Part shown: positions 37,231-60,955 of the stretch, piece after piece
Layout of the letters: each line of letters starts with the position of its first letter
Numbering within the stretch: the first letter of the stretch is position 1
The notes under the pieces: model-generated
Database searches by the model: none
What the model was told of the DNA's origin: nothing
The model's input: only the letters and a program-made list of their open reading frames with translations
Made by a program: the position numbers and the translations under genes
Assembly (NCBI GenBank): GCA_947588355.1
Contig: CANPYI010000006.1
Location: 1,910 to 65,909 of the forward strand
Direction of reading: 5' to 3'
Length of the DNA: 64,000 nt
From: an uncultured Clostridia bacterium
Lineage (GTDB): Bacteria; Bacillota; Clostridia; Christensenellales; UBA1242

Positions 37231-40200
37231 TTACTTTCCCCAAATTGCATACAGTTTTGTATCTGAATGGACTGCAAATGGTTGTAAAGTGTCATATCCA
37301 TGAATATTTGTAGCACCATCTGATGCATTTTGGCAATTTGTCAAACTCCAAGACAAAATTTTAAAATTATATTTTATTACATATCTACATACGCATGTTC
37401 TTGTATAGTTTGAAGGCGTAAAAGTTTCTCCATCAAGAATAGCAACTTCAGAGATAGGTTTTGGAGATTCAACTATAGAATAGTCAAACAACCAAGCACT
37501 TGGTTTTACAAATGTCACGTCAAAGGTAATATAGTACCAATTTTGCTTACTGATGTTTACAATCGATGAGAAGATCATGTCTTGATTGTCAACGCGTGCC
37601 GTCTTTCCGCTTAAACTAAATGGAGCATAGTTGTAACCAGCAAAGGTGTAAGTCGTTCTGTAATCAAGCCAGTCGCTGTTTGCTCGTTTTGTGTCAATAT
37701 AATAGTTCTGCTGACCCAAAAGTTCAAATGTTTCGCCTTGATACATATCCGCCTTGAAAGTTTTCTTTGTGTGAACATTATTCACAAGTTCGTAGTAAGT
37801 GTATTCCACATGATATTTGTTTCTTACGTACAAGGTCAAGTCGTTGTTTGGCATTTCGTCCGGCAAGAAGGTTTCTTGTGCAAAGCCCGCATCCAAATAC
37901 CACTTTGTTGTGTCAGAAATTCGTACAGTTTCTGGCAAAGCATACACCATATCTTGTGTCAAACTTGCATCTTGGACTATCTTTGTTCCGGTTTGCAATT
38001 TGGTGTCAACAAGAAGTTGCTCGTCGTCATAGATTTTCAATTGCCATTCATAAACAACGCTGACAATATCCCATTTTGCGTACAAAGTTTGGTCACAATG
38101 CGGCATAATGTCGTTGAACGGCAGTTCAAACGCTTGGTCGGTGAACCAACCTGCAAAGTGATATGTTGTCGTTGCGCCGCTGTCATAGATCACAATATCT
38201 TCTTTGCCATAATCCCTAAATGTTCCTTTGGCTTCTTCTCCGCCATAAACTTTAATTGGATCAAGTTTTTCGCCGACACCGGTATCAAAACTGAGAGTAT
38301 ATTCAATCAAAGTTTCATAGGTTTCGTAATTTGCATAGAGTGTGGTACTTTCATTTGGAATAACAGTAAGAGGAATTCCTTGATCATCTTGCCAGCCTTT
38401 AAAGCGTTTCTTATACAAGTAAATCCCGTTCTTTTCTTCGATTTCCGATTTTTGATTCAAGGTTTCTATGTCGACAAGTTCAGTCCCCGCAATATAATCA
38501 CCATACTGTGTGCCAAGTACTTTGCCGTTGTACATAAAGGTCATTGTTCGCCAAGCCTCAACAACTTCCCATTTTGCATACAGTGTGACATTGTATCTTG
38601 GAATCTTTCCGGTTGTAAATTCTGTGCCAGCGGCAAAGTTTGCGTCAGTGTACCAGCCTGCAAATTTATAGATTGTGTAATCAGTGCCTGACTGTTTCTG
38701 TCCAACAACGTGATTCTGTGTGTAATTTGGCAAGGTGAATGTTTGACCAATCTTGCCGGTCACATTTTCGGCTGTCAAGCCATCTACATTGGTCTGGAAA
38801 GTCACTGTAAATTCACGCTCTGCCGCTTTTTTCCATTCACCTTTCTCTGCATCCCATTCCTCATTTTCTGGATACGTATAGTTGTTGATGAATTCGTCAA
38901 AAGAGGTGAAATCAAGGTCTTTGTCAAGTGTAAGGTTCATATCTTGAGAGTTGTCATTTGTGGTCTTTAAATCAAGTTGAACAGCGTCTGCAAACGGCAT
39001 GTTTAAACCAAAATTTAAACTTCCAATCACTTTCTGTTCAACAGTTTTGCCATCGTCGAGTTGTTTTTTGAAATCAGCAAGTTCAATTCCGATTGACATA
39101 TCACCCATGTTTTTGTCGCCAGTAATTTCTTTCATGTTGAGCGAAAGTGTGTAATGAGGGTTGTTGTCATTAGGTAAGTCAAAACTGTTGATAATGTTTC
39201 CTAGGTCAACGGTATGCTCTATTTCCAAACTCTTTCTGATTGCATCAATAATCAAATCTGAGAATCCCGTACCCCATTGCAAGTAGTAGATTGGGTCGTC
39301 CAAAACAGTGTCTACGTGTGCTTTAAGTTTCTTCTCATAAGAGCCTTTTTCTTGTTTTGACCCACGGTCTTCGTGGCGATAGAAGTAAACAAACTCATCT
39401 TTATAGTAGATATACAACATACGGTTGTTGACTGTAGGCAGTATCCACGGAGTATCATTGTTTATCATAATCAATTCAGCCACCTTTGGAACTGGTATTA
39501 CTCCTATTTCGGCATAAATTTGAGGTTTGTTGTCAACAAGTTTAAGTTGTATTTTCACTGGAATATCCCAAGTTACATGATACTGCTTCACTATTGTAAA
39601 TGTTAAATCAACTTTAAGTTTTCCAGTAAGTTCAAAAGTCTTGTGAGTTGCGGTGTTGATTACTGCGGCGATAAGATCTTCTGCGCCTGAAAGGTCGATA
39701 TATTTCAATGAGGTGTCAGGTTTCGTCATGGTCTTCAATTCTTTGAAGTTTATTACAAGATTGAAGTGTTCGTTGTTTGTAACGCCTGTGTAAAGATTTT
39801 TGATCACAAGTTTTGACAAGTTCTGTCCGTCAAGCACAATTTGTATATCCATATATTCAGCACGCTCTGCCGACGAAATGAAACTGCCGTCCAAACTTAT
39901 ATCCAAAGTGTTGCCCTTTACCTTGAACGATTTAATAATGCTTATCATAGAAAGTGGATTGCTTGTGTCAAGTTTTGGCAACAATTTGTTGACAACAGAG
40001 CCGTCAAGTCCGCTGTCGCCACTCTCTTCTCCCGTGATGAAAGACACCATAGATGGGTCAATTCCAAGAATCTCGCAAACCATTGTCAGCAAGCCTTGTA
40101 AGCCACTTGTGTTGATTTTAAGTTTAAGTCCGTTGTAGTTTACATATAGATAATTTTCAAAAATGCTTAGGTTGAGGTTCAAGTCAAACCCTGCCGCTTT

Positions 40201-43200
40201 TGTACCGTCAACTCCTGTCACTTTTGCATCGCCGTAGAATTTGAGAGTGTCGGTTATGTCCACTTGAAGAACAATTCTTTTTGCATCGTAGATTTGTGTC
40301 AGCCCTTCATAAACCTCTGCATCAGCAGTCAAGTTGTACTTTTTGCCCATAACATACGATTTTATGCTGGTGACAAATGGCAAGACATCCATAACATCAA
40401 AATAATCGCCTTCAACTGAAACAGTTTCTTTTTTGTCAACCGTTGCAGTGGCATCAATGCCTTCCGCTTGAATCTTAACAGACTGGATCATGTCACTTTC
40501 ACTGAACGTTACAAATGCAGAAAGTTGTGGCAACATTATATCAAGATTTGAGTCTGAAAGTGATATCTGCAAATCGCTGAGCAATTGTTTTATGTCCAAA
40601 CTGCCAATGTCGATGTCGGTCGAATCCTTAAGACCATTCAATTTGTCTTTGATTTCGTTATACTTTGTCAACAAATCTTTGTTGAACTCGTCTTTTATAT
40701 ATTGCAAAACATTTTCTATGTCGCCAAGGTTGAATTTCAGTTTCAAATTGTCAACATCTAAGTAAACAACGTTATCAAGCAAATATGCTTTGATTGAAAG
40801 TCCGTCGATGGTTGCAGAAAGGCTCGCCGAAAATCCGTCAACATCATAATTTACATGTCCCAAGACTTTGAATCCTAAATCTGCTTCAAGTTTGATATAA
40901 AAAATGTTGTTTTTGATATAACTGTAAACTTCGCCCGCTTTGTCAATAAGGTCAAGTGCAGAGACATATGTCACTTCCTCATCCAATGCTGTAACGTCTT
41001 GTGCTTCATTCTTTCTCGTTATCTCTGCAAAAAGTTCTCCGTAGGACACTACAATCTTTTCCAACCTGTCCCCTACAAAGTTCACTGACGCTTCAACACC
41101 TTTGTATCCCGCCGTCAATAAGCCGTCTTTGTATCCAAGCAGCATTTCTGCAATAATCTCTTCAATTTTGGTGTCTTGATTTACAGATTGAAGTTTTTCT
41201 TTGATATCAAATCCAAACTTATCCTTAATCTTGGCCATTATGTCGTCAAGGTCGTCTAAATCCAGCAAAATGTGAATGCCCTTGAAATCAACATATAAAA
41301 GTTTGTCAAAGATTTTTATCGTCGCAGTTTGCTCATATGCAACAACTTTTATCTCTGCACTCAGTTTGCCGCCGACATAATTCACTGCGCCGGTGATTGA
41401 AATGTCTTTGTAATTTCCGCTTATTGTAACATAATACTCATTGCCCGTAATGTATTTGTATACATCTGAAATTTTGCCGAGCAGATCTTGCATTGGTGTG
41501 TAAATTTTTTCGTCAGCAGACTTGTCGATCTCGGTCGCTTCGTCAAGTTTTGTCACTGTTGCAAAAATGTCTTTGTAGCCTATTTCCGCTTTCTGCAAAT
41601 TGTCCTCTTCAAAGAACACTTTTGCCGTTATATCGTTGTATTTTGCGGAAAGAATATCGTTTGCATAACCGATTTCAAGTTCTTTCAAAACCGCAAATAT
41701 GATATCTGCTTTGGATTTTTCTTCCAAACTCTTGGCGTCGATTTCTATTCCAAATGTATCTTCCAAAAATGCCATCAGGCTGTCAAGTTCATCCAAACTT
41801 GCACAAATGTGTATATCTTTTACATCTACATAAACTTCTTTGTCAAACACACGAATTGAGGCTTCTATTCCTTTGTATTCTGCCTTCAATATTGCACTCA
41901 GCCCGTTTGTGTCGTAGTTTATTGCACCTTTTATTTCAATGCCCTGCACATTTGCTTCTATTTTTGCATAGTACTTTCCGGCATCAACATAACTCATCAA
42001 AGTAGCAGCCTTTGTTAGTATTTCCGTCGCACAAGTGTATTCGTTGTTTGGCTTTTCTACATTCGTTGCTTCGTCAACTCGCGTTACTGTTACAGTAATA
42101 TCTTTGTAAGTAATTACAACAGACTTCAACTTCTCTTTATCAAAGTTTATGTTCGCTGTTATATCTTTAAAACTAAATTGCAAACTATTGTTTTTGTATC
42201 CAAGTGCCAAAGCAGTCAGTATTCCTGCAATATCCACGTCTTTGACATCTTTAAGACCTTCAAGTTCTGCTTTTATATCAACATTCAACTGTTGTTTCAA
42301 AAATTCTGCCAAAGCATCTAATTCTGTAAATGCAAAACTTACATGCAAATCCTTAAAATCAATATAAACAACTTCGTCAACCACTTTGACTGACGCTTCA
42401 AGTCCTTTGGCATTCAGTTTTATGTCTGCACTAAATCCGTCTGTGTTGTAGTTCACTTTGCCTGTCAAGCATACATCTTCATCAATCTCAACTTTGACAT
42501 CTGCATAATATTCCCCTGACTGTACATAGTCCACAAGCCAAAGAGCCTTGTCAACAAAGTCAGAAAGTGGAACATATTTTTCACTGTCTTGAATTGGTGT
42601 GATTGCTCTTGCTGTGTTTTTAATGTCAGCAGTAAATACAAAATCTTTGTAATTTACGTTCAATGAAGATGGGGCGTTTCCAACAAAGCGAATCTGTGCA
42701 AAAAGATCTTGCCCGTCAACAAACAATCCTTCCTCGTTGCAATGAATTTGAATATTTTCCAAAAGTTGTTCAAGCGAAACGCTTTCCAAAATGTTTTCCG
42801 GCAGTTCTGTTGTTTCAAATTTTGCAAATATACTGCCAATCAAAGTTTTTAAATCTTCAAAATTACATTCAACATGCAAATCTTTTATGTCAAAATAAAC
42901 ATCGTCGCCAATAATATTGATTATTGCTGTTTGCTCAAACGCTGAAATCACAATTTGTGCCCTCAGACCATCTTCGTCAAAATTGAGTGCCCCTGTCAAA
43001 GCAAAATCTTTGTAAGTTGCAGTAATATCCAAGTAATATTTTTGTTGCTTGATATAATTGTACAAACCTTCAACTTCTTCAGCAACTTCACTTATGTGCA
43101 TAAAATCAGCGACATCATATTTATCAATCTCAACTTTTTTGTAAGAAAGTTGGATGTCCGCATCAATTTTTTCACTTTCAACAACAACTTCGTTGAGAAG

Positions 43201-44958
43201 TGTGTCATATTTTATTGTTGCAAAAATTTTGTCAAGGAGACCTATTTTCAGTCCGTTTTCTGTGTCTTCAAGAGAGATAAATCTTGCATAATTGTTGCTG
43301 TCCAACATTTGTTTTACAGTATCCACAACACTTTGCGAGTCTTCTGCTCCTGCCACAGAAACAATCATCTTCAGCACATCGCCGATTTCTTCCAAAGAGC
43401 CGCAAATTTTAAGACCGGCAAACTCCAAGAAAAACATTTCATTTTGATAGTTCAAAACAAGTTGTTTTCCCAAAATATTTGCTTCGACTTGTGCCTGTAT
43501 GCCATTTTCAGTTTTTGCATAAGCAAAATTTGCCACAAAATTTGTTAAGCCAATGTTGATTTGAGCCGTTCCAGAAATATAATCTTGCTCAATCGTCTGC
43601 AAAACAGCATCGACAGCAGGAATAACTTGCGCGATATCGGCATGTTTTTGCGAGGAAACATTGATTTCTTTTGCTTGAGTTGTTGAAAGGTTGATATTCA
43701 AGGAATTTCCTTCAAAAGACACTTCCTTAAATTTGTTTTCCGTCAAGAGAATGTCAATTTCGCCAATGTCTCGCAAGGAAATAACAAATTTGTCACCCTG
43801 ATGTGTCAAACTTTGCAAAACACTCAAATCAACGCTGTCCAAACTTGCATCGCCAAGTCCAAGCCCACCAATAAGAGTGGCAAAATTGCCTTCTTTCAAG
43901 CAAGAAAGAATGACAGCGATCTTTTCCATAGGCAAAGATTTATCAAAATGTTTTTCAAGCAAGGCTGCAACTTGGTCAAGATCAGAAAGAGCAAATTTTA
44001 AATAAATATTGCCATATTCAAGATAAAAAACATCATCAACAAAGGATACTTTAAGTGGTAAATCCAAAATAATTGTCTCGAACATCGCTTTTTTGTTTGA
44101 CGCATCAACATTTATTGTGCCGCCAATAGCAAAATCATTAGCCGCAACATCCACATCAAACGCAAAATTATCGGCGCTTATTGTGTCAATCACAGCGGTC
44201 GCGATGTCCAAAAGTTCGGTCACCTCAATAAATTCTTCTTGTGCTGGCTGAACGATTTCAATATTTTGTGGATAATCTATGTTTGCAGAAAGACGCAGCC
44301 CCATTCCTGAAATGTCTGTTCGAGGCAAAGAAATTGATTTCAAACTGTAATCAAGGTCGCAAACAATCGTCAATGCACCAACAACAGGCACATTGATGAC
44401 GATCGTGCTTGTGTTTCCGTTGATTGTTTCTGTAAGGTCACTGAGCATACCCAAAATCATGTTGATATCCATACCGGCAAGATCAACTCCGTCCAAACTT
44501 GGCATAGAAACGCCCAAAAGGCCGGTTATTTTGGTGACCGCTTCCATAATATTGTCGGTTTCCATGCAAAATTTGCCATTGAAAAGTTGAACAAATATGT
44601 GCGTGCCGTCATATGCAATTTTTATATCAAATTTTTGATCGTCAAGGTCAAGCGAAATATTTCCATCTGCTTTAAGGTCGGAAAACCCGCCCGAAAGGTC
44701 CAATTGCCCATCAACTCTGATTTTAATATTCTTTGCACCGGTGTCAATTTCGGCATCAAGGTTGATATCCAAAGCCTTGGCACTTTTAAATCTTTCAACA
44801 ATGCTCAAAAGTTGAGCAGGAATTTCTGTCGCCGATGCGTCCTCTTTGACCTCTGCAGGCGAAAGAAAGATAATTCCCGCTGCTGTGCCAACGGCAATCA
44901 ACAAATAAAGAACAACCATGCCTGCAACTTTGCCTACACGTTTGAAAAACTTTTTCAT
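37231..44958 (-). CDS. giant (2,575 aa) N-terminally membrane-anchored protein: ~9 copies of an unassigned ~180-aa repeat, a unique middle region and C-terminal B-repeats
   Basis: Uninterrupted ORF. GGAGG lies 6 nt upstream of ATG 44958. The N-terminus is MKKFFKRVGKVAGMVVLYLLIAVGTAAGIIFLSP, a signal-anchor. For repeats and C-terminal B-repeats see the sub-features. Confidence 0.9.
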   Translation of the reverse strand: MKKFFKRVGKVAGMVVLYLLIAVGTAAGIIFLSPAEVKEDASATEIPAQLLSIVERFKSAKALDINLDAEIDTGAKNIKIRVDGQLDLSGGFSDLKADGNISLDLDDQKFDIKIAYDGTHIFVQLFNGKFCMETDNIMEAVTKITGLLGVSMPSLDGVDLAGMDINMILGMLSDLTETINGNTSTIVINVPVVGALTIVCDLDYSLKSISLPRTDISGMGLRLSANIDYPQNIEIVQPAQEEFIEVTELLDIATAVIDTISADNFAFDVDVAANDFAIGGTINVDASNKKAMFETIILDLPLKVSFVDDVFYLEYGNIYLKFALSDLDQVAALLEKHFDKSLPMEKIAVILSCLKEGNFATLIGGLGLGDASLDSVDLSVLQSLTHQGDKFVISLRDIGEIDILLTENKFKEVSFEGNSLNINLSTTQAKEINVSSQKHADIAQVIPAVDAVLQTIEQDYISGTAQINIGLTNFVANFAYAKTENGIQAQVEANILGKQLVLNYQNEMFFLEFAGLKICGSLEEIGDVLKMIVSVAGAEDSQSVVDTVKQMLDSNNYARFISLEDTENGLKIGLLDKIFATIKYDTLLNEVVVESEKIDADIQLSYKKVEIDKYDVADFMHISEVAEEVEGLYNYIKQQKYYLDITATYKDFALTGALNFDEDGLRAQIVISAFEQTAIINIIGDDVYFDIKDLHVECNFEDLKTLIGSIFAKFETTELPENILESVSLEQLLENIQIHCNEEGLFVDGQDLFAQIRFVGNAPSSLNVNYKDFVFTADIKNTARAITPIQDSEKYVPLSDFVDKALWLVDYVQSGEYYADVKVEIDEDVCLTGKVNYNTDGFSADIKLNAKGLEASVKVVDEVVYIDFKDLHVSFAFTELDALAEFLKQQLNVDIKAELEGLKDVKDVDIAGILTALALGYKNNSLQFSFKDITANINFDKEKLKSVVITYKDITVTVTRVDEATNVEKPNNEYTCATEILTKAATLMSYVDAGKYYAKIEANVQGIEIKGAINYDTNGLSAILKAEYKGIEASIRVFDKEVYVDVKDIHICASLDELDSLMAFLEDTFGIEIDAKSLEEKSKADIIFAVLKELEIGYANDILSAKYNDITAKVFFEEDNLQKAEIGYKDIFATVTKLDEATEIDKSADEKIYTPMQDLLGKISDVYKYITGNEYYVTISGNYKDISITGAVNYVGGKLSAEIKVVAYEQTATIKIFDKLLYVDFKGIHILLDLDDLDDIMAKIKDKFGFDIKEKLQSVNQDTKIEEIIAEMLLGYKDGLLTAGYKGVEASVNFVGDRLEKIVVSYGELFAEITRKNEAQDVTALDEEVTYVSALDLIDKAGEVYSYIKNNIFYIKLEADLGFKVLGHVNYDVDGFSASLSATIDGLSIKAYLLDNVVYLDVDNLKLKFNLGDIENVLQYIKDEFNKDLLTKYNEIKDKLNGLKDSTDIDIGSLDIKQLLSDLQISLSDSNLDIMLPQLSAFVTFSESDMIQSVKIQAEGIDATATVDKKETVSVEGDYFDVMDVLPFVTSIKSYVMGKKYNLTADAEVYEGLTQIYDAKRIVLQVDITDTLKFYGDAKVTGVDGTKAAGFDLNLNLSIFENYLYVNYNGLKLKINTSGLQGLLTMVCEILGIDPSMVSFITGEESGDSGLDGSVVNKLLPKLDTSNPLSMISIIKSFKVKGNTLDISLDGSFISSAERAEYMDIQIVLDGQNLSKLVIKNLYTGVTNNEHFNLVINFKELKTMTKPDTSLKYIDLSGAEDLIAAVINTATHKTFELTGKLKVDLTFTIVKQYHVTWDIPVKIQLKLVDNKPQIYAEIGVIPVPKVAELIMINNDTPWILPTVNNRMLYIYYKDEFVYFYRHEDRGSKQEKGSYEKKLKAHVDTVLDDPIYYLQWGTGFSDLIIDAIRKSLEIEHTVDLGNIINSFDLPNDNNPHYTLSLNMKEITGDKNMGDMSIGIELADFKKQLDDGKTVEQKVIGSLNFGLNMPFADAVQLDLKTTNDNSQDMNLTLDKDLDFTSFDEFINNYTYPENEEWDAEKGEWKKAAEREFTVTFQTNVDGLTAENVTGKIGQTFTLPNYTQNHVVGQKQSGTDYTIYKFAGWYTDANFAAGTEFTTGKIPRYNVTLYAKWEVVEAWRTMTFMYNGKVLGTQYGDYIAGTELVDIETLNQKSEIEEKNGIYLYKKRFKGWQDDQGIPLTVIPNESTTLYANYETYETLIEYTLSFDTGVGEKLDPIKVYGGEEAKGTFRDYGKEDIVIYDSGATTTYHFAGWFTDQAFELPFNDIMPHCDQTLYAKWDIVSVVYEWQLKIYDDEQLLVDTKLQTGTKIVQDASLTQDMVYALPETVRISDTTKWYLDAGFAQETFLPDEMPNNDLTLYVRNKYHVEYTYYELVNNVHTKKTFKADMYQGETFELLGQQNYYIDTKRANSDWLDYRTTYTFAGYNYAPFSLSGKTARVDNQDMIFSSIVNISKQNWYYITFDVTFVKPSAWLFDYSIVESPKPISEVAILDGETFTPSNYTRTCVCRYVIKYNFKILSWSLTNCQNASDGATNIHGYDTLQPFAVHSDTKLYAIWGK
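37234..38811 (-). repeat. C-terminal ~526 aa with about 5-6 degenerate Listeria-Bacteroides-type repeats
   Basis: FTVTFQTN...YKFAGWYTD...VTLYAKW; ...RFKGWQDD...TTLYANY; ...YHFAGWFTD...QTLYAKW; ...TYTFAGYNY...; ...TKLYAIWGK. The start was verified at about 38811 (EFTVTF). Confidence 0.65.
39800..44840 (-). repeat. protein-level tandem array of about nine ~176-200-aa units (unassigned family)
   Basis: A landmark motif recurs at aa ~62, 264, 460, 640, 816, 996, 1174, 1352 and 1540. It reads (helix)..(E/K)YY(A/V/L).(I/V)......(I/L).G.(I/V)NY...G(L/F)SA.(I/L)K....G(I/L)EAS(I/V).V.D..VY(I/V)D.KD(I/L)H(I/V)......ELD.L..FL. My counts are +/- 5 aa. Spacings are 176-202 aa. Confidence 0.7.
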
Positions 44959-46058
44959 GCGGCACCTCCAACAGGCAAAGTCACATTTTGATTGAAGACA
45001 AAATCAGTGTTTAATGTGCCGGTGCATTCTGCCGGGATTCCAAATGCAACAACAGTGTAATGCTCCAAAACTTCTGTCCTGACAAAATTCCAATTTTCGT
45101 CCAAAATCACTTTCACTTGAACGTCATAAAATTTGGGTGCGCTTTCCAAACCACTTGTTTGCATAACTTGTCTGTAATATCTAAGTACCGATGTCACGGG
45201 GTCAAGTTGCATCGTAAACTCATATGCTTTTTTGTCATTGAATGTTGTTTCAACAACCTGAACATTTGCTTCGTCAATAATTGTTTTGGAGGAAACAACA
45301 TATGGCAAAAGTCTGTCTGGTTGCATACCGTTAAGTTGCTCGTACTCGGTCAATGGAAGACTTTTGTCTTTTTTCCATACTGCAGTGTGAATTTTGGTTG
45401 TTTCATCTTGTTGCAGCCCGTCACCTTTGTATAACTGAACGTTTGAGCCGCCTTTTTGCATGACAGCGCAAGTTGCAACGGTAAGCATGCCCGCACTCAT
45501 ACTTTCAAACGTGTATGTGCTTCCGTCAAATTTTTTGCTGCTTGTGATATCTTGGTTTGCAATCGTGTCCACAACGCCAACACCAACAGCCTGATAAGAG
45601 GTCGCTTTTGATGCCAAAAAGTCGGCAATAGCAAAGTTTTGACTTGCAGAAAGTTTGCAAGGATTCAGTTTTCCGTTTGATTTTAAAATGGCAACTATGT
45701 CACCTATTTCGTTTTCACTTGAAAACTTTTGACCTGTGACAGAATTAAGCACGTTAATTCGATTGATTTCGTAGTCTTCAAGATTGTAATTTGAATAGTC
45801 AACAGACTGACCAGAAATATAGTCTTTGTACCAGCCACCAAGCCAAACACCGGAAGAAACTCCAAGCACAACAACCATTGCAAACGAAAAAACACGGCGT
45901 TGCCAAAAATGTTTTTTGCGTTGAAGTTTTTTTGCAGACGAAAAAGTTTCAGCACCAACATTGTTTGCTTTTTTAAGTCTCTTTTTTTTGTGGAACTTTA
46001 AGATTGGCTTAAAGTCCAAATTATCTTCAGGTTGTTTACCTAATATTTTACTCATCAA
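44955..46058 (-). CDS. bitopic membrane protein (367 aa), unknown function, translationally coupled to the 2,575-aa gene
   Basis: It has a basic cytoplasmic N-terminus, one TM (VFSFAMVVVLGVSSGVWLGGW) and a ~290-aa exported domain. Its TGA stop overlaps the downstream ATG (ATGA at 44958..44955). Its last codons contain that gene's GGAGG. The start is TTG 46058 or ATG 46055. Confidence 0.8.
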   Translation of the reverse strand: MMSKILGKQPEDNLDFKPILKFHKKKRLKKANNVGAETFSSAKKLQRKKHFWQRRVFSFAMVVVLGVSSGVWLGGWYKDYISGQSVDYSNYNLEDYEINRINVLNSVTGQKFSSENEIGDIVAILKSNGKLNPCKLSASQNFAIADFLASKATSYQAVGVGVVDTIANQDITSSKKFDGSTYTFESMSAGMLTVATCAVMQKGGSNVQLYKGDGLQQDETTKIHTAVWKKDKSLPLTEYEQLNGMQPDRLLPYVVSSKTIIDEANVQVVETTFNDKKAYEFTMQLDPVTSVLRYYRQVMQTSGLESAPKFYDVQVKVILDENWNFVRTEVLEHYTVVAFGIPAECTGTLNTDFVFNQNVTLPVGGAA

Positions 46059-46141: not shown

Positions 46142-46171
46142 ATTATATAATGCATAGTGCATAAAAATCAA
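46142..46171 (-). promoter_or_regulatory. candidate promoter of the 367-aa/2,575-aa operon (TTGATT-N18-TATAAT)
   Basis: On the minus strand the -35 is at 46171..46166 and the -10 TATAAT at 46147..46142. The spacer contains the small palindrome ATGCActaTGCAT. The leader would be about 80 nt. Confidence 0.3.
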
Positions 46172-46270: not shown

Positions 46271-47293
46271 ATGAAAAAGCCTAAAGATAAAAAAATTGAA
46301 AACAAAAAGATAAACAAATCAAAAAAGAAAACTGTCTTTAAAGCGGTTGGGATTCCGGTCGTGGTTATTGCTTTAGCAGGATCTGCTTTTTTGCTTTACA
46401 ATTGTATCGCAAACAATCACTACAACAGCACCCCGCCTGCCAAGGACCCTTTTACAAGCGACCATGTTTGGGACAACAACGGCAATGATATTCAAATCGG
46501 GGACGACGGCAACATAATCACAGATCAACTTTCAGAAACCGACAAACAAATTTTGACTGCTCAAATGAAAAATCTAGTATTGCAGGACGCAAATTCACGT
46601 TTGGAAAACAGTATAGATTCAGTTGATGACATTCTTTCAATTTCGTTGCTGCCTTACAATCTTTTTGAAAAAGACAACGAATTTGACAAATACTATCTTT
46701 CAATTTTGTTTTCTGACAAAGGCGAAACATATACCTTAAATTATCTTACCGGAAAAGACTCGCCTGTCACAACGCAAGATTTTTGTAAAGACAGCAGTTC
46801 AAAAGATACGTTTGCAGACTTTATACATTTTTTGAATTACGAATGTGCACTTGACACTTGCGAAAAAATGAATGGCTCCGCACTTGCCGTCAAAAATGCT
46901 TTGCAAGGTGATGTGGTGCATGTTGGAAACACATATTGTGGATACGAAAAAAGTGGCGATGAATATTATTACATTCCAATATATCATCAAGATGGCACAT
47001 GCACGATTTACAACTCTTGGACTTCACCAATCGACGGTCAAGATTTGGATCCTATGGAAGAATTTTTGAAAGAAATCACAAACCCAACGATTGAAAGCAA
47101 CAAAAAATATTTTCAATGCCTTACAGACTGGACAACTGAAAATTCACAAACAATCGAAAATTTAAACAACATAGTTCAACTTTGGCAGAAAATTAAAACG
47201 CCAGAACAACAAAATTCTGCCCAAAATGAAAGTTCAACGAAAAACAATGTTGTTGTAAAAAAACAATTCAAAGAAAAAGACTTGTCAAAATAA
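46271..47293 (+). CDS. bitopic membrane protein (340 aa), unknown function
   Basis: It has a Lys-rich N-terminus (MKKPKDKKIENKKINKSKKK), one TM (AVGIPVVVIALAGSAFLLY) and a ~290-aa exported Asp/Asn/Cys-containing domain with no recognised motif. It is divergent from the 367-aa gene. Confidence 0.75.
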   Translation: MKKPKDKKIENKKINKSKKKTVFKAVGIPVVVIALAGSAFLLYNCIANNHYNSTPPAKDPFTSDHVWDNNGNDIQIGDDGNIITDQLSETDKQILTAQMKNLVLQDANSRLENSIDSVDDILSISLLPYNLFEKDNEFDKYYLSILFSDKGETYTLNYLTGKDSPVTTQDFCKDSSSKDTFADFIHFLNYECALDTCEKMNGSALAVKNALQGDVVHVGNTYCGYEKSGDEYYYIPIYHQDGTCTIYNSWTSPIDGQDLDPMEEFLKEITNPTIESNKKYFQCLTDWTTENSQTIENLNNIVQLWQKIKTPEQQNSAQNESSTKNNVVVKKQFKEKDLSK

Positions 47294-47327
47294 AAAACTC
47301 TTTCTGATTTTGAAAGAGTTTTTTTTT
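47294..47327. terminator. bidirectional rho-independent terminator between convergent genes
   Basis: A 9-bp stem AACTCTTTC (47296-47304) / GAAAGAGTT (47312-47320), with an A-run before it and a T-run after it. It serves the 340-aa gene (+) and the 1,698-aa gene (-). Confidence 0.8.
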
Positions 47328-50300
47328 AAAACTTGATTTTCCTTGCATTCTTTTTTCTGAAAATGATCACAATCACGCCAATGATTGTCAAGATTATTAC
47401 TGCAATTGAAATATATGAAGCATAATCAAGCCAAGTTTCATCTTCTATAACGATGTAAAATTCGCCGAGTTGATCACAAGATATCCAAAGTTGATTGTCG
47501 TCATTTTTCTGGCATGCAAGAAGATTGTAATTTTGCCCATTTTTTTGATAAACGCGAATATTGTTTTTTTCAAAAAGTTTTTTGGAAATGTTCATTTTGA
47601 TTGTAAACATGCCATCAACATCAACAACTTCGCCATTTTCCGCAATCCATATATTAAGTTTAAGAGCTATGCGATATTTTTCTATCTTTTGTGTGTTCTC
47701 AACAACTTCAGTCACATAATCAAGAGTGTAATCTTTTTCCAAAACGGGATCGTTTGTTGTTATCACAATTTCATTATTTTTAATAGCATCAAAAGTGATA
47801 TCTGCAAGCAATTTTTCTGGATAAATCAAATTGTAATTGTTTGACTTTTCTCCTGTCAGTTTTATGTCGTCAATACGCACTTCAATATTTTTTCCTATCT
47901 CTGTGCTGACAAAATGAGCACTGTTTTTTCGGTCATAATCAAGATAAACATCATCTACAAGCCCAGAAACATATGCATTTTTGATGTATGCGTTTGTTGT
48001 GCCGTCATAAATTTTGTCGGAAACGCTGACAATCAAGTAAACATCTTTTTTCAATATTTCAAGTTTTGCAGGTAGAAATTCAATGTTGTAGTTGTCATTG
48101 TAAACACTTGCCACAAGATCATAAGTGCCGATGTTTTCCCCTCCTTGTCTTGTTATTGCACCATAAAGTTCATCACCGTTGATCAACTCACCTTCAACAA
48201 TACTGTAGGTGAATGAAGGATCTTCCTGCCCGTATATTTTTTGATAATCGTCACACTTGAGTGTAAGTTTGATCGGCAAAATGGTGACTGTTCCTTTTTG
48301 GAATTTTATTGTGTAGTTTCTTCCGGCGGTGAGAGTGCTGATAATATCATACACACCAACGGAGTTTCCGCTCATTCTGTACAACCCACCAGAAAGATTG
48401 TCGCCGTCCAAAATCTCGCCAGAAACAATTTTGTAAGAAAGTTCAGGCTCCTTGTCGCCATAACTTATTTGGAAACTGTCTGCCTCTATGACAATCTCTC
48501 GAGGCAAAATACTGAAATAATAGTCAGCAAAAACAATTTCATAGTTTGGATTTGTCAAAGTGCAAAAAATTTTGTATCTGCCAACGTTTTCTATGGTTCC
48601 GTCTGATTTTTGTCTGTACAAAGTTCCGTCCAAGTGGTCGCCCTCAAGCAAATCACCTTTGATTTGATATGTAATTTCTGTGTCGGGATCGCCAAATTGT
48701 TTGGAAATATTTGTTGGAATTATCTCAATCTGCCTTGGCAAAATTTGATATACGCCTTCAACAAAATCAACCTGATAGTTTGAATTGAGTGACAAACTGC
48801 CTTTGTGAATTTTGTATTGTCCAACATCTTCGCCCTCATCTCTTTCAAGGCTGCCTTCAATTTGGTCAGAAAAAGCCAATCCATTTTCGGATATTTTGTA
48901 TGTCAAATTGTTGTCATCATCACCGTATATCTTGCTTGTTGCAATTGCAGAAATTGTGACCTGGCGTTTGATAATTGTCAAACTTCCGCCCTCAAATGTC
49001 AAATTGTAATTTTTTCCAAATGAAAAGTCTCCTTGACTTATGATGTAAACTCCTGTTTGCTCCCCCTCTTGTCTTGTCATGCTGCCGGTTGCAATATTTT
49101 CCACTCGGTCATTGTTTTTCAAAAGTCCGTCTGTGACAGTGACACTGAAATATGGATCGTTGTCTCCATATATCTTGATTTTTTCGTCCGCTTTGATGCT
49201 TATGTCACTTGGAATAATTTCTAGATATGCCTCAACAAAAGTGATTGCATATCGAGAATCATTGGTGTTGCAATAGAGTAAATATTTTCCAACATCTTCG
49301 CCATATTCACGTAAAATATCAACTGAAAGATGCTGCCCATCAACTTCGTTTGAAACTTCATAAGAAAATTTTGGATCATCTTCGCCATAAATTTTTGTGG
49401 AATCAAAACTTGTCACAACAACAGGTCTTTTGTTTATGATAAAATTTGTGTTGCTTGTGTTTGTAAAGAAATAGTTTTTGTTTGAAGACAGACCGTTCAA
49501 GTCATATTCATAAACGCCAACAACTTCACCCTCTTTTCTTGAAATTTTGCCGTCCAGAATGCTTTCATCGTCATCAAAACAAAATTTGCCTTCAAGTTTG
49601 TATTCAATCTCAGGGTCTTCATCTCCAAAATATTTGCTGTAACTGTCGATAGAAATAGCAACTTCTTTTGGCAAAATTTCAAAATAAGAATTTGTCAAAG
49701 CAAGGTCATAATATGATTGAACATTGTCACCCTCCATCACAAACTGATATTGTCCAACTTCTTCACCTGGATTTCGAGCAATATTTATTTGCAAAGAGTC
49801 GCCTTCCAAAACATTTCGCGCAGTGTAAACAAATTCTGGATCGTGTTCGCCATAAATTTTGGTGGTGTTTGTGACAAATATGTTGACCTTGCGCTTTGAA
49901 ATTTGTATGCTTGAATTAAGAAACTTAAATTCAAAATCAAAATTCTCTTTTTTGTCACATTCAACATCGAAACTTTCTATATTGATTGTTGCAACGCCAC
50001 ATTTGATGCTGTTTAATTTTGCGTCCAAATTTAACGCAAATTGTGCCTCTGTGATATTGTTTTTGTAAGTTACATCAAACTCAACAGAATTGCCACCATC
50101 ATATTCTTTGTCCTTAAAGCCAACTTCAACAACAATTTGCCTTTTTGTGATATTGAGGACATTTGTTGTGAAAATTATCTCATAATTTGTATTTGAAAGT
50201 GTGCCAAGTTGGATGAAATACTGTCCAACATCTTCCCCATCTTCACGATCAAGGTTTCCAAAAATCTCATCATCTCCTACAAGATTTTCAACTTGATATG

Positions 50301-52422
50301 TTAGTTGTGGGTCATCTTCGCCAAATATTTTAAACTGCTCATCTGCCACCACAAAAGCATTTCGCGGTGTTATTGTGCAAATTGCACTTTCAAAACTGAT
50401 AACATAATTTGAATTTGACAGTGTGCCGAGTTTGATTTCTTGCTTGCCAACATTTTTATCCGCAATCTCCAAATTTCCGGAAAAATTGTCACCCGGCAAC
50501 AGACCATCACAAGTGTATTGCAACTGCAATTCATCACCATACACATTTGTGCAAGACAATGCCTTTACAGTGACTTGTTTTGCATAAATTGTGCTGAATA
50601 TTTGCTCGGAATAATCTTCAAGCACATAGTTGTCTTTGTCCTGTCCAACAAGTTCCGTTTTTGTGATTTTCACTTCAACATTTGCGTTGACATCTTTGGT
50701 GACAAATTCACCAAAAACTTCAACATCAACATCTTCGTTGTTGTAAATATTTCTAAGTCCGGCCTTTATGTGTGCCTCTGTTGTTCCGTCATATGTTTTT
50801 TCGTCAACCACAACATTATCCAAAGAAAGTGTGCGCGGCAATATCTCAAAGAAAACTGAGTCGTCAAAAATGATGTTGTAGTTTGAATTTCGTTCTGGCA
50901 AATCCCCCAAAAGAATTTTGTATTTGCCTATAGCCTCGCCCGTTTCTCTTGCAAGGCTGCCCGTCAGCGACTCACCCTCAACAAGATTTGTTGCGGTGTA
51001 AGAAATGGCATGATCCTGATAGCCGTATTCTTTTGTGGATATGTTTGGTGTAAGGAATATTTCTCGTTTTGAAATTGTGCCATACGCAAGTGGTATTATT
51101 TCGGTTTCCAAGTAATAAATATCACTGTTTTGACCTGCAAGCGACAATGTGTCAAAGATAGCATTTGCAAACTTGTTCTGTCCAACATTGGCGTCCTTGT
51201 AAGCGAGATTTAATCCAACAATTGAAACTTCATGTCCTGATTCAATGCCAGAAAAGTCCATTCTGATCAAACTTGAATCAATTGTCGTTGTGCCGTCATA
51301 CTCGCGGTCAGAAATTGTGATGCTCTTTACGGAAATGCCTTTTTGAAATTTTGCATAAATATCCTTTCCAAATTCGGCATCTACTATCAGTTTATTTTCA
51401 CTTGTTTGAAAGGCATCATTTATGTACCACCCCAAAAATTGATAACCTTGATTGGTCTTTGCCCTAAGTGTCACTCTCTTTCCTGGCACATACGAGCCCT
51501 GACCGGTTATTGTTGCGGCTTCTTTAAAATCCGTTCTCACTTTGATATTGACTTTTTCGGAGTCCACAACAAGTTCAACATAGTTGTCAGAATATTGCTT
51601 TTCTTCTGAATAGGAGTTTTTGTTTGCACATGCTCTGAATGTTATCTTTGCGCCATTTGGTGCATTTTGTGAAATAACAAAATTTGAGCCGACAACTTCA
51701 ACATATTCTCCGCCTTCCAAAAAGTCATAGCAAATTTGATGGTTGATTTTAGAAAAACTTGTAAAATTGCCGGAAATTCCAGAAATATTTGTAACTTCGT
51801 TAAAGGCATCTATCTTCAAAATTTGACCCGGTGAGACTTTTTGATTTTCTGTCAACAAAGTGACCGAATCGATGATTGTGTAAAGATGAATTGTAGGTTC
51901 GTCCATCACAAAATCATTTTTCTTGCCAGAACTTTCAAAAGAAAATCTTATATTTTGTTGAACATCTTCAAGTTTGAGCAACGGGGTTGCAAGTGCTCCA
52001 TTCATAGTGCTTGCCTCTTGAGAATTTTCTCCCGCTGAAATTGTGATTTTTATGGTTGTGTTTTTTGAAGAAATATTTGCAGTGGCACAAGCATACAACA
52101 AGCCTTTTTCTATAAAATATTGCATTTCCGTTGTTGGCTTAAACTCTGCCCAGCCGGAACTAGTTTTTCCGCCGTCAGAACAAATAGAGTAAAATTCCCC
52201 AGAAGACTGCTTTGTTTTGGCATTTACAAGTGTACTCTGATCGCTCGCATCAAAGAAGTAATGCTCTGGGCTGTTTCCGCAAAGGCCTGTCAAAACAAAT
52301 TTGTTTCCGGAGACACCTTCAACAATGGCGTTGGCAGAATCAATTGACAAAATAGGAAAAAACATGCAAGCAATTGCAAGCAAAAGCACAAATATTGATG
52401 CAGTGAAAATTTGCTTTTTCAT
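47326..52422 (-). CDS. giant (1,698 aa) secreted, C-terminally membrane-anchored MBG-domain repeat protein
   Basis: Signal peptide MKKQIFTASIFVLLLAIACMFFPILSIDSANA/IV. One divergent B-repeat (GYQFLGWYIND...IYAKF). About 11 YGX-type and about 4 YDG-type MBG-like repeats. The C-terminal TM YISIAVIILTIIGVIVIIF (47359..47415) is followed by the basic tail RKKNARKIKF. Confidence 0.9.
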   Translation of the reverse strand: MKKQIFTASIFVLLLAIACMFFPILSIDSANAIVEGVSGNKFVLTGLCGNSPEHYFFDASDQSTLVNAKTKQSSGEFYSICSDGGKTSSGWAEFKPTTEMQYFIEKGLLYACATANISSKNTTIKITISAGENSQEASTMNGALATPLLKLEDVQQNIRFSFESSGKKNDFVMDEPTIHLYTIIDSVTLLTENQKVSPGQILKIDAFNEVTNISGISGNFTSFSKINHQICYDFLEGGEYVEVVGSNFVISQNAPNGAKITFRACANKNSYSEEKQYSDNYVELVVDSEKVNIKVRTDFKEAATITGQGSYVPGKRVTLRAKTNQGYQFLGWYINDAFQTSENKLIVDAEFGKDIYAKFQKGISVKSITISDREYDGTTTIDSSLIRMDFSGIESGHEVSIVGLNLAYKDANVGQNKFANAIFDTLSLAGQNSDIYYLETEIIPLAYGTISKREIFLTPNISTKEYGYQDHAISYTATNLVEGESLTGSLARETGEAIGKYKILLGDLPERNSNYNIIFDDSVFFEILPRTLSLDNVVVDEKTYDGTTEAHIKAGLRNIYNNEDVDVEVFGEFVTKDVNANVEVKITKTELVGQDKDNYVLEDYSEQIFSTIYAKQVTVKALSCTNVYGDELQLQYTCDGLLPGDNFSGNLEIADKNVGKQEIKLGTLSNSNYVISFESAICTITPRNAFVVADEQFKIFGEDDPQLTYQVENLVGDDEIFGNLDREDGEDVGQYFIQLGTLSNTNYEIIFTTNVLNITKRQIVVEVGFKDKEYDGGNSVEFDVTYKNNITEAQFALNLDAKLNSIKCGVATINIESFDVECDKKENFDFEFKFLNSSIQISKRKVNIFVTNTTKIYGEHDPEFVYTARNVLEGDSLQINIARNPGEEVGQYQFVMEGDNVQSYYDLALTNSYFEILPKEVAISIDSYSKYFGDEDPEIEYKLEGKFCFDDDESILDGKISRKEGEVVGVYEYDLNGLSSNKNYFFTNTSNTNFIINKRPVVVTSFDSTKIYGEDDPKFSYEVSNEVDGQHLSVDILREYGEDVGKYLLYCNTNDSRYAITFVEAYLEIIPSDISIKADEKIKIYGDNDPYFSVTVTDGLLKNNDRVENIATGSMTRQEGEQTGVYIISQGDFSFGKNYNLTFEGGSLTIIKRQVTISAIATSKIYGDDDNNLTYKISENGLAFSDQIEGSLERDEGEDVGQYKIHKGSLSLNSNYQVDFVEGVYQILPRQIEIIPTNISKQFGDPDTEITYQIKGDLLEGDHLDGTLYRQKSDGTIENVGRYKIFCTLTNPNYEIVFADYYFSILPREIVIEADSFQISYGDKEPELSYKIVSGEILDGDNLSGGLYRMSGNSVGVYDIISTLTAGRNYTIKFQKGTVTILPIKLTLKCDDYQKIYGQEDPSFTYSIVEGELINGDELYGAITRQGGENIGTYDLVASVYNDNYNIEFLPAKLEILKKDVYLIVSVSDKIYDGTTNAYIKNAYVSGLVDDVYLDYDRKNSAHFVSTEIGKNIEVRIDDIKLTGEKSNNYNLIYPEKLLADITFDAIKNNEIVITTNDPVLEKDYTLDYVTEVVENTQKIEKYRIALKLNIWIAENGEVVDVDGMFTIKMNISKKLFEKNNIRVYQKNGQNYNLLACQKNDDNQLWISCDQLGEFYIVIEDETWLDYASYISIAVIILTIIGVIVIIFRKKNARKIKF
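47797..51339 (-). repeat. protein-level MBG-domain array
   Basis: The repeat is (Y/F)G(D/E)xDPx(L/F)(T/S)Y......(L/I)..GD.(L/F).G.L.R..GE.VG.Y.I..G.L....NY.I.F....(F/L).I.(P/K)R.(I/V), interleaved with ...(K/E)xYDG(T/G)T.A... units. Confidence 0.7.
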
Positions 52423-52440: not shown

Positions 52441-55400
52441 TTAATATCTGCAAGGTTGCCTGATAAGTCCAAGCAAAACTGAGTTGCCTATGTAAGAATC
52501 TTTTGGTTTTATGAATGCATCGTCTGTTGCGGAAATTGAAAGCAAGGATATTTCTATTGGCACCATAACCGCCAAATCCAACGCCCCCTTAACTTCAAGT
52601 GGTGAATAGCCCGCCCTAAGTTTTGATCGGTCAATTGTTCCCATTGAATTGTGATTGTTTGTCGGAATTTTTGCGTTCATGAGCATTACGCCAAAATTGA
52701 AGTATTCCACGCCGTTTTCTTTGTAAGAATAAGTAGAATTTTTCGATGCAATTTCTCTTAATTGCTTGAAAATTTCGTCAGCAAGGAATCCAACACCTGC
52801 CTCTCGTAAAATTCTTTCCAAATCAAGTGACTGTTGCATTTGCTCCAAGGTTGACCAGTTGTAGAACCAAACCTCTCCTTCCAAAGTTAACTTGCTTTTG
52901 TTTGGATTTTGAAAATTGTCCATAGTAAAGAATATACCTGAAAAACTTGATGTGAAGATGCTATCTTTGACTGTGACATCACATACGGCGTCTTCTGTTC
53001 TTGTGATGTTTAAACCAACTGACAGACAGTTACGGAAGATACAGCCCTCAACAGTTATATTTGAACTGAGCACACGTAATCCAATCTCGGCATTTTCTAT
53101 TATGGTGTTGTACAAAAGAATATTGTTACAAAAATCTATACTCAAAGTCACATCGGCATTCTTCAATTCTTCTCCATGTGTGAAAGATGTTCCGCGCAAT
53201 ATAACGTTGTCCACAACACAGTTGTTCATGTTTGCAATTCTAAAGTGATCCCAATTCGTAGCGCCTGGAGAAGCATCAAAAGTGTAGCCATTTCCGTGAA
53301 GATTGTATGTAATAATAACGACATCAGAGCCTTTATCTACAACAATGTCGCTTTGCATAACTATTCCCGCGTAACCGTCCTGTCTTCCAGCATTTAATTG
53401 CTCAAGTTTTGGAAGTGCAATCTTGTACTGCTCAAAGTTCCAAATGTTGACACCTTCAACAATTTTAAATTCATAACTATCGCCAAAAACATTTGCTCCT
53501 TCGTACAAAACTTTTTGTTGAACACTGATTGTCACAGTTCCGGTGCTGTGGAATGTCACCGTGCCATTTGGGTCAACCGTTGCAACAGACTGATTACTTG
53601 AACTCCACTCAAGCAAATCTTTTGTGCATATCTCTGGATACAGAGAAACATTCATGTTGTAAGTATTTACAATTCGGTCGCCATCTACAAAGTACATTCC
53701 CCAAACTCTGTAACCGCCATGCCCGTGCTTGTCACCTGAATTGTCAAGTTCAAGTTTAACGTCGCTTATACGGTTGTAGAAGTGGAATGTTTTGCTGACC
53801 TTGATATCCTTGTTTTTCACTTGCGCTGTCACAACAACTTCTCCTTGTGAAAGTCCAAAAAGTCGGAAACTGCCTGTGCGTTTTGTCAATTGTGCAACTT
53901 CTGGATTGTCGATAGTCATCTCATATTCAAACTTGTCAGCATCAAGCGGCATTGCAATTACAGAAAGGTCAATATATTCGCCAACAAACAAGTTGTCACG
54001 AGTGTTGTTGAATTTAATTGCCTGCAATTCTTTTGTATAAACAACTTCTATGTTTTTGAAGATTGACGGATTGTCAACAACATAAACAGTGACAGTGCAT
54101 TTTCCAAGTTGAGTGAAAGTCAAAATGCCATCTTGCGTTATGCTTGCAACATTCTGATTGTTCAATTTGTATCCAAGCAAAACTTGATGAGTGTCACTTG
54201 GCAAAGCACGAGCCTTGACAGCATAATAAGGTTCTGAAACATACACATTCTGCCCATCTTCAAGCAAAATATCTGTGGCATCAACACTTACAATAAGCGT
54301 CAAAGTTTCAAGTTTCAAGTTGTTTACAAAAAGTGTAAATCTGAATTGTCCGCCGTTTAAGGCATTCAAAGTTCCATATTCAAAACTTGCAACAGGTTTG
54401 TTTAAATCGTTTCTTTGCTCCGAAATGTCGCGAATCGAGAATGAAATATTTGCGTTGTCGTTTGGATAAACATTTTTAAGTTTAAATTTGAAACTTTCTC
54501 CAGCCCTGAGACGGATTGTGTTGTTTTCAATTTGAGTTTTGTCTAGTTTTGCATCTACAATATCATCGCCAACATAGTAGAAATTGTAAGTTTTGGATTT
54601 TTCTCCATATGTAGTGTCGCTGCTTATAATTTTGATGGAAGCGCGACCTTTTTGTAAGAATATAATTTTGTTTCCTTCAATTTTTGCTATTGAATTGTCG
54701 GAAATTTGATATGTAAAGTCTTTGATGACCGCATCTTGCGGAGAGATGACAACTTTAAATCCAATTTTGCTTTTGCTTGTGATGAAAGTGCTTTGATTTT
54801 GATAATTTTGCATTTCATTTTCAAATTTAAGTTCGATTCCTGAAACAGCAGAATATACATAAATCTTGCATTCGGCAAAAACTTCAGTGCTCTGCTCGGC
54901 ATAAACTCTCACGATGGCAGTTCCGCCATACAATCCAACGATTTCTCCATTGTCAGAAAGCCCAATAACTTGATTGTCGGACAAATCTGCTGCCGTTTGC
55001 GAAACAATCTCATATCTTATGCTGTTGTAAACGGCATCTTGAGGATATTTTTGAACATTCAAAACAAACTTGTCGCCTTTGTTGATTTTGTATTCCTTGG
55101 AATACAAAACAATTTGACTCAAATATCCTAATGTGCTTGTGATTGCAATATTTTTTTGTATATTGCTGCCATCTGTGGAACGAACAGTCACAATAACTGT
55201 GCCAGGTTTTGAAAAATGCAAAGTGTTTCCGTCAAGTCGAGCGATATCGGTTTGCTGAAGTGAAAATTCAAGTTGTTTTATAGTCGCCGTTTGTGGCAAT
55301 ACAACGGCTTCAATCGTGTAGGTGTCTTTTGCTGTCAAAACATTTTCTTGCACAACGATATCTGTCACTTTGTTTAAGCAGACAATATAAATTTCTTTTA

Positions 55401-60930: not shown

Positions 60931-60955
60931 TTGTTTTATCCTCAAGTACGTTATT

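Follow-up and report, generated by a model that had tools for sequence, protein, structure and literature searches.

A giant membrane-anchored protein of an uncultured Clostridia bacterium carries a tandem array of domains whose predicted fold resembles LolA

What is a bacterial protein of 2575 residues built from, and what might it do, when curated models (Pfam and NCBIfam) find no match anywhere in its first 2000 residues? This question is raised by a giant gene on the reverse strand of a 64,000-nucleotide stretch of DNA, hereafter the window, from an uncultured Clostridia bacterium (GTDB lineage Bacteria; Bacillota; Clostridia; Christensenellales; UBA1242; GenBank assembly GCA_947588355.1, contig CANPYI010000006.1, positions 1,910 to 65,909 of the forward strand). 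An earlier description made from the letters alone, which we call the sequence-only reading, had claimed about nine tandem copies of an unassigned unit of ~180 amino acids (aa) behind an N-terminal anchor. Here we report that the array is real, that the predicted fold of its unit resembles that of LolA and its relatives, and that the giant gene is accompanied by a conserved partner gene. The giant gene and its array comprise the following features.

37231..44958, reverse strand: the giant gene (2575 aa), encoding a transmembrane anchor, then nine to ten LolA-like units, then C-terminal Listeria-Bacteroides repeats.
44863..44928, reverse strand: N-terminal hydrophobic helix of the giant protein (aa ~11-32, VAGMVVLYLLIAVGTAAGIIFL), preceded by the basic MKKFFKRVGK.
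44233..44832, reverse strand: unit 1 (aa 43-242), divergent (profile E 1.1e-6), the positional orthologue of unit 1 in other members of the family.
43645..44232, reverse strand: unit 2 (aa 243-438), the positional orthologue of unit 2 elsewhere in the family.
43105..43644, reverse strand: unit 3 (aa 439-618), the positional orthologue of unit 3 elsewhere in the family.
40405..43104, reverse strand: units 4-8, the expandable middle (aa 619-794, 795-973, 974-1152, 1153-1330 and 1331-1518).
39724..40404, reverse strand: unit 9 (aa 1519-1745), enlarged, the positional orthologue of the last unit of other members.

Repeat detection did not fail on this protein; the periodicity is upheld both by phmmer and by a profile. 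When the unit at aa 972-1161 was searched with phmmer against its own protein, five other copies were recovered (E 2.9e-37, 2.5e-30, 5.7e-15, 4.2e-15 and 1.9e-6), and iterating the search added the weaker ones. A unit profile based on 28 units taken from nine homologous proteins (alignment A1) placed nine units, at aa 43(58)-211, 243-438, 439-617, 619-792, 795-973, 974-1150, 1153-1328, 1331-1519 and 1519-1727, with start-to-start spacings of 200, 196, 180, 176, 179, 179, 178 and 188 aa. On the DNA the array covers ~39724-44832, matching the 39800-44840 first reported, and the residue landmarks given with that range fall on the first strand of each unit (YYAKIEANV, for example, begins at aa 996). 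Units 1 and 9 have diverged (profile E 1e-6 and 3e-10), and all units are acidic, with isoelectric points of 4.2-4.8. No column in the alignment of 28 units is invariant or nearly so, which suggests that the unit plays a structural part. Self-BLAST of the giant protein returned the identity match only and did not see the repeats. At the DNA level, Tandem Repeats Finder detected no tandem repeat in the giant gene, indicating that the array is old and not an artefact of assembly. The N-terminal anchor also held up: a basic stretch is followed by a hydrophobic segment of 22 residues, which by its sequence would act as an uncleaved signal-anchor.

The unit had been called unassigned, and so it stayed in every sequence search. 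In Pfam, even at E<=10, the 28 units drew scattered single matches with no consistent family, and a sequence-profile search of the PDB with the unit gave chance matches only (best E 0.05). Using A1 as the alignment, AlphaFold2 folded unit 6 into a compact domain with a mean predicted local distance difference test (pLDDT) of 89.6 and a predicted template modelling score (pTM) of 0.78. The elements run in the order helix (H4-20), six strands, two helices (H82-96 and H110-120) and five strands, i.e., 11 strands and 3 helices. Every peptide that the sequence-only reading had quoted coincides with a strand or helix of this model, yet its count of four strands in the second half of the unit falls one short of the five modelled, and its charged linker, while present, holds a third helix. 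The polar/apolar alternation that it described as strict is found in nine of the eleven strands; such alternation is equally expected for a closed hydrophobic core.

A Foldseek search of the unit 6 model against the PDB gave 27 matches at E<=1e-3 (best E 3.4e-5). At probability >=0.99 these were chains of LolA, LolB, LprG, LppX and LprF only, save for one PNGase (probability 0.99, template modelling score (TM-score) 0.28), and the top LolA-type alignments, at probability 1.0, span the entire unit and the entire target. The remaining matches were sliding clamps (probability 0.5-0.7, TM-score ~0.15). The LolA/LolB/LprG superfamily has as its hallmarks a domain of ~180 aa with an unclosed antiparallel sheet of about 11 strands and lid or plug helices, and a hydrophobic cavity for acyl chains. 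With respect to this superfamily, the unit is alike in its size of ~180 aa, in its predicted eleven antiparallel strands and three helices, and in full-length structural alignments at Foldseek probability 1.0 and E down to 3e-5. Its TM-scores against LolA-type chains, however, were 0.32-0.49 (0.37-0.49 for the confident matches; the best, 0.49, with LppX, 2byo), below the usual same-fold criterion of at least 0.5; LolA chains aligned to the models with TM-scores of 0.32-0.45 and root mean square deviations of 7-9 Å. Nor did Pfam (28 units, E<=10), NCBIfam or the PDB profile search yield a profile match to this superfamily (SSF89392; Pfam clan LolA_LolB). Because of these TM-scores and of the missing sequence profile, we speak of the modelled unit as resembling LolA in fold class and not as a demonstrated homologue. 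Members of the LolA-like superfamily are known to share structure but not sequence (GerS study, bioRxiv 10.1101/2025.01.13.632879). There are other differences: the giant protein lacks a lipobox and carries nine to ten copies in one membrane-anchored chain, as opposed to one soluble or lipid-anchored domain, there is no Lol or major facilitator superfamily (MFS) transporter partner in the module, and the hosts are labelled Firmicutes or Clostridia. A structural match to a known family, which the sequence-only reading had set against its own claim of novelty, has accordingly been found in part, at TM-scores below 0.5, and it is to neither an adhesin nor an immunoglobulin-like (Ig-like) family. 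An Ig-like or adhesin-repeat identity of the unit was considered and rejected, as neither the profiles nor Foldseek list such matches.

Direct coupling analysis (DCA, mean-field) of 927 single units (effective number of sequences, Meff, 841) gave a view of the same domain from coevolution. It recovered the hairpin ladders of the model (25-39, 51-64, 59-75, 69-80, 121-130 and 149-160) as well as the contacts of helix 1 with strand 9, and the recovery of the predicted ladders validates the approach. Strong couplings within the unit also join strands that are not neighbours (23-74, 29-67, 120-158, 71-128 and 41-130), pairing beta1 with beta5, beta7 with beta11, and beta2 or beta5 with beta8, which suggests a curled or closed sheet and not a flat meander.

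Does the same fold extend past the last detectable unit? The distal part of the protein, of which we modelled units 7-9 and the head as a single 858-aa fragment of four domains (aa 1153-2010; AlphaFold2, 43-row alignment), comprises two features in addition to units 7-9.

38944..39723, reverse strand: conserved head (aa ~1746-2005), with the motifs NND...NR.L.IYYKD.Y.YFYR.E...YEK.
37234..38943, reverse strand: C-terminal region of ~570 aa, with repeats of the Listeria-Bacteroides / InlB B-repeat type and Y.F.GWYTD...TLYAKW motifs.

This distal model reached a pLDDT of 81 and a pTM of 0.59, and the linkers between its units have pLDDT values of 72-84, which exceeds what would be expected for free linkers. 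Units 7 and 8 follow the pattern of unit 6. Unit 9 matches just the first 135 positions of the profile by sequence, and is modelled with the full succession of helix, six strands, helices and five strands, its strands being longer. A region of ~330 aa after the array had been described as unique. It starts only near aa 1746, and its modelled part (aa ~1760-2000), a helix, six strands, three helices and five strands, repeats the secondary-structure order of the unit. In a profile-profile comparison (hhalign), the start of this head is in register with the start of the unit, at a score that is not significant (E 0.0066, probability 6%). The head is probably a tenth, divergent unit, a point that the sequence-only reading had missed. 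Conservation within the family is highest in this head, over which 42 homologues are 30-46% identical to the window protein and which carries nearly invariant polar and aromatic residues. For the 858-aa model, Foldseek once more listed LolA, LprG, LppX, LprF and RseB; over both models, all matches listed at probability >=0.97 were LolA, LolB, LprG, LppX, LprF or RseB chains, save for one PNGase and one sponge carotenoprotein.

The C-terminal B-repeats, in turn, are as first described. The region scores 48.3-51.2 bits with Pfam Flg_new (PF09479, cut-off 27) and 53.3 bits with NCBIfam TIGR02543 (cut-off 20.95), i.e., above the curated cut-offs, as in other proteins with Listeria-Bacteroides / InlB B-repeats. 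Unlike in those, the repeats here are the tip only, and nothing in the first two thirds of the protein is related to them. The C-terminus of the giant protein has neither a transmembrane helix nor an LPXTG motif. Listeria-Bacteroides repeats have been counted as adhesion factors (PMC7883539).

How are consecutive units joined? The sequence-only reading had likened the array to bridge proteins of the AsmA/TamB/YhdP type, in which case the strands of all units would make up a single, unbroken hydrophobic beta-groove for carrying lipids. As in TamB, YhdP and YdbH, there is an N-terminal transmembrane anchor and a very long, beta-rich extracytoplasmic part, in which long runs of amphipathic strands are separated by helices. 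We examined couplings between units, in 622 adjacent pairs (Meff 562). In a continuous groove, the final strand of unit n would pair with the opening strands of unit n+1, but just one of 546 such couplings exceeded the 99.5th percentile of inter-unit scores, against 2.7 expected; at a Meff of ~560 this missing signal is suggestive, not conclusive, evidence against a continuous sheet. The strongest coherent signal lay elsewhere. It couples the beta5-beta6 hairpin and the beginning of helix 2 in unit n (positions 71-92) to the N-terminal half of helix 1 in unit n+1 (positions 1-14): in this block 12 of 308 couplings passed the same threshold, against 1.5 expected, whereas three control blocks had 3, 1 and 1. 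Further points speak against the groove. Pfam gave no AsmA, AsmA_2, TamB (DUF490) or DUF748 match; no TamB, AsmA, Vps13 or ATG2 chain, nor an Ig-like adhesin, was among the 50 matches listed by Foldseek for the unit model or among those listed for the 858-aa model; a unit modelled by itself forms, with good confidence, a compact domain; and the related genomes are labelled Firmicutes or Clostridia. Such a bridge is thus very improbable. Taken together, the inter-unit couplings, the pTM of 0.78 for the single unit, the pTM of 0.59 for four domains and the linker confidence favour, at the level of prediction, discrete half-barrels that are interlocked by a bridging helix. The second suggestion of the sequence-only reading, a new beta-sandwich stalk, comes closer in function, though the fold is not new, resembling as it does the LolA/LprG half-barrel.

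To place the window protein among its relatives, we searched 1.84 billion representative proteins, clustered at 50% identity, exhaustively with a profile. The search returned 598 clusters at E<=1e-3, 218 of them at E<=1e-30, and most of the 150 family proteins listed are 1,200-6,200 aa long with 5-18 matched stretches. By comparison, a word-indexed homologue search found 10 relatives, each with Flg_new or without any Pfam domain, and the same kind of search with the unit alignment as query found no match. The related contigs are labelled as metagenome-assembled genomes of uncultured Firmicutes, Clostridia or Clostridiales, and one sample is named Lapin. In the 154 proteins retrieved, an N-terminal hydrophobic segment is present in 137, the units number 2-14 (median 7) with a median period of 191 aa, and the median tail beyond the last sequence-detectable unit is 755 aa. 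A hidden Markov model of the head, built from eight close sequences, matched 113 of 161 proteins, directly after the last unit (median gap 4 aa). The giants of further loci carry 4-9 units, the shortest relative examined having four detectable ones, and several members of the family are without recognisable C-terminal repeats. One relative (P0048, 4325 aa) shows weak summed similarity to the gliding-motility lipoprotein GldD (Pfam GldD_lipo; whole-protein E 3.7e-13, no single stretch being significant); this match falls in the repeat region, at aa ~1120-1160, and may be a hint of distant relation or a mere repeat artefact.

Pairwise scores between units revealed how such arrays change in length. 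In the window protein, units 1-3 and the last unit score far higher with their same-numbered counterparts in other members than with any unit of their own chain; unit 9, for instance, reaches 525 with the last unit of one relative (P0002) and 83 inside the window protein itself. Units 4-7, on the other hand, find their best matches in each other (scores up to 342), and unit 8 scores 267 with a unit of P0002 and 222 with the best unit of its own protein. These scores indicate that the ends of the array are fixed and that the middle was amplified lineage by lineage. Fixed ends with an expandable middle are the pattern of length-variable stalks, and the giant protein has its tandem modules, whose number varies over the family, set between its anchor and its C-terminal repeats.

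The giant gene does not stand alone. Immediately upstream, and missed by the sequence-only reading, lies a conserved gene that we call the partner.

44955..46058, reverse strand: partner gene (367 aa as listed from a TTG start; 366 aa from the next ATG).
46142..46171, reverse strand: sigma-70-like promoter match upstream of the partner gene (TTGATT-18-TATAAT), in itself weak evidence.

The partner protein has a basic N-terminus, one transmembrane helix (~aa 55-78) and an outside domain of ~290 aa, as predicted. It has no Pfam match, no PDB match and no similarity to the LolA-like unit. Its TGA stop overlaps the ATG of the giant gene (ATGA), a translational coupling of the two genes, and a GGAGG lies 6 nt before that ATG. 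We examined ten loci, namely that of the window, three of five GTDB loci, three found from distant giants and three found from distant partner homologues; in all ten a partner homologue (27-58% identity, ~300-460 aa, single-pass) directly precedes the giant gene, on the same strand. In the three loci reached from distant partner homologues, a protein of 1904-2441 aa with 5-9 units is encoded 3-5 bp downstream of the partner. Given this arrangement in ten of ten loci, the unit of inheritance is a two-gene module, which occurs once per contig in the loci examined.

Within a distant branch of the family (loci L007, L010, L011 and L012), the module is preceded by a conserved gene set, namely a leucine-rich repeat protein, a pseudouridine synthase and small unannotated open reading frames, one of which has a weak match to phage holins. 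At L010 the module lies ~10 kb from dnaA-dnaN-rnpA-yidC-jag.

What, then, would such a protein be for? With a probability of roughly 0.55, we read it as a membrane-anchored, rigid and length-adjustable stalk of LolA-fold modules, with a conserved head, adhesin-type repeats in most members, and a base partner in the membrane; what we infer are the surface location, the length of the rod, the partner's role and an output in adhesion or binding. The giant protein would be the shaft-and-head subunit of the two-gene surface module, inserted by its N-terminal signal-anchor with the N-terminus inside and the C-terminus outside. From this anchor, nine to ten consecutive LolA-like half-barrels of ~180 residues would project as a rod. 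The N-terminal helix of each unit may lock neighbours together, its first half packing against the unit before it (at helix 2 and the beta5-beta6 hairpin) and its second half against its own sheet, which would produce a fairly stiff spacer as opposed to beads on a string. As units 1-3 (the base) and the last unit with the head (the distal end) stay fixed, growth or shrinkage of the middle in each lineage would set the reach, and at ~3-4 nm per unit the rod might extend over a few tens of nm. The head and, in most members, the Listeria-Bacteroides repeats would contact a ligand beyond the wall, and the co-translated, single-pass partner probably sits with the base at the membrane.

That the repeat has a structural role in this stalk is favoured by the variable copy number, the lack of conserved residues, the uniform acidity, the interlock signal and a precedent, GerS. 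In Clostridioides difficile, GerS is a LolA-like lipoprotein that activates the amidase CwlD (bioRxiv 10.1101/2025.01.13.632879). It is thus a case of the LolA-like fold in a Firmicute serving protein-protein interaction and not lipoprotein transport. Unlike the giant protein, GerS has a single domain and no repeats, is a lipoprotein that dimerises by strand swapping, and acts in sporulation; a sequence relation between GerS and the unit was not detected.

Several observations weigh against the stalk reading. The inter-unit couplings rest on ~560 effective sequences only. The base units, the last unit and the head are conserved above the adhesin-type repeats, which several members lack in recognisable form, so the head may be the seat of the key activity, which could be something other than adhesion. 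Ordinary, fast-evolving adhesins do not usually have a strictly conserved partner or, as in one genome here, a dnaA/dnaN/yidC neighbourhood. Finally, nearly all confident structural neighbours of the modelled unit are lipid carriers.

This last point raises the thought that the units have kept lipid cavities, and that the chain passes, stores or captures lipids, lipoproteins or other hydrophobic molecules on the way between the cell membrane and the distal head or a surface in contact, analogous to the mouth-to-mouth transfer from LolA to LolB. The confident neighbours of the unit and of the distal domains are indeed mostly lipid or lipoprotein carriers (LolA, LolB, LprG with phosphatidylinositol mannoside (PIM) or triacylglyceride, LppX and LprF), the chain begins right at the membrane anchor (unit 1 at aa 43), the interlock would align the units, and the conserved partner and the conserved polar residues of the head suggest a machine and not a plain adhesin. 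Yet the TM-scores are below 0.5 with no sequence signal to LolA-clan families, the units are without conserved residues, and 2-14 copies per protein are unusual for a conduit of fixed span. Moreover, the module comes without a conserved transporter or ATPase, its partner has a single transmembrane helix, and LolA-like folds in Firmicutes can serve non-lipid roles. We consider such a relay quite unlikely. In its boldest form, all ten domains in series would be functional binders of lipids or lipoproteins, making up, with the partner, a covalent bucket-brigade conduit or harvesting arm for hydrophobic molecules between the membrane of a Gram-positive-type gut bacterium and a contacted surface or the cell's own outer layers; this we hold to be distinctly unlikely.

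The surroundings of the module in the window bear on a further alternative. The other genes of note are the following.

4684-32313, reverse strand: open reading frame of 9209 aa with an N-terminal signal-like segment and a C-terminal transmembrane helix and basic tail, without LPXTG; this protein has no LolA-like unit.
46271-47293, forward strand: 340-aa product with an N-terminal hydrophobic segment, no Pfam match.
47326-52422, reverse strand: 1698-aa protein with 11 MBG_2 and 3 YDG domains and a C-terminal transmembrane anchor and basic tail, without LPXTG.
52441-58593, reverse strand: 2050-aa protein with Big_2 repeats and hyaluronate-lyase N-terminal beta domains.
58596-60200, reverse strand: 534-aa product that looks polytopic, no Pfam match; it precedes an ATP-binding cassette (ABC) ATPase gene (60214-61011).
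61162-62415, reverse strand: 417-aa product with an N-terminal hydrophobic segment, no Pfam match.
62441-63928, reverse strand, at the window edge: DUF5722 protein (E 6e-86).

Housekeeping genes (nrdD, nrdG, dut and tmk) also lie near the module. As other giant surface proteins crowd the window, the region of the module looks like a surface-protein, or surface-interaction, island.

Repeats of the InlB type, and domains related to them, can attach to wall polymers of the cell that displays them. It is conceivable that the rod and its partner form a ruler or scaffold of the envelope, setting or sensing distance in the wall, the S-layer, the capsule or a cell-cell junction and not binding a ligand outside the cell, with the C-terminal repeats bound to the bacterium's own surface polymers. 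A two-gene module that is conserved and occurs once per contig in the loci examined would suit this role, as would the positional conservation of base and head and the location of one member beside dnaA/dnaN/yidC. Close relatives (44-49% head identity), however, vary between 4 and 9 units, which fits the tuning of an adhesin's reach better, and the wealth of other giant surface proteins in the window suggests a surface-interaction island instead. On balance, an envelope ruler appears unlikely.

Returning to the stalk, giant stalk adhesins with tandem spacer modules offer a comparison, e.g., the G5-E repeats of SasG/Aap and the Ig-like arrays of SiiE and LapA/MpIBP. The likeness to these would be functional and not one of homology: a surface anchor, an array of modules in variable number and a distal binding region. 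The differences lie in the module, a LolA-like half-barrel as opposed to an Ig-like or G5 domain; in the anchor, an N-terminal transmembrane helix in place of LPXTG or a type I secretion system (T1SS) retention module; and in the presence of a conserved head and a conserved partner gene.

What do these findings mean for the family? Curated libraries and the literature searched appear to contain no description of the domain family, of its tandem use or of its linked partner, although the fold class is a known one. With 598 clusters and no Pfam or NCBIfam model, the unit represents a sizeable unannotated domain family, and it comes with a strictly linked and likewise unannotated membrane partner. 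To our knowledge, this would be the first case of a LolA-type half-barrel serving as a tandem building block, with up to ~18 matched copies per chain. Annotators gain an account of two thirds of a class of giant 'hypothetical' proteins from uncultured gut Firmicutes. For those who study LolA, LprG and envelope lipids, it poses the question of whether the fold here is a rigid brick, a kind of repurposing for which GerS sets an example, or a series of cavities that bind ligands. In the brick case, we have a new stalk module, useful and unsurprising; if the bucket-brigade conduit were true, it would constitute a previously unknown form of lipid transport across the envelope, independent of Lol, Lpt, Mce and AsmA.

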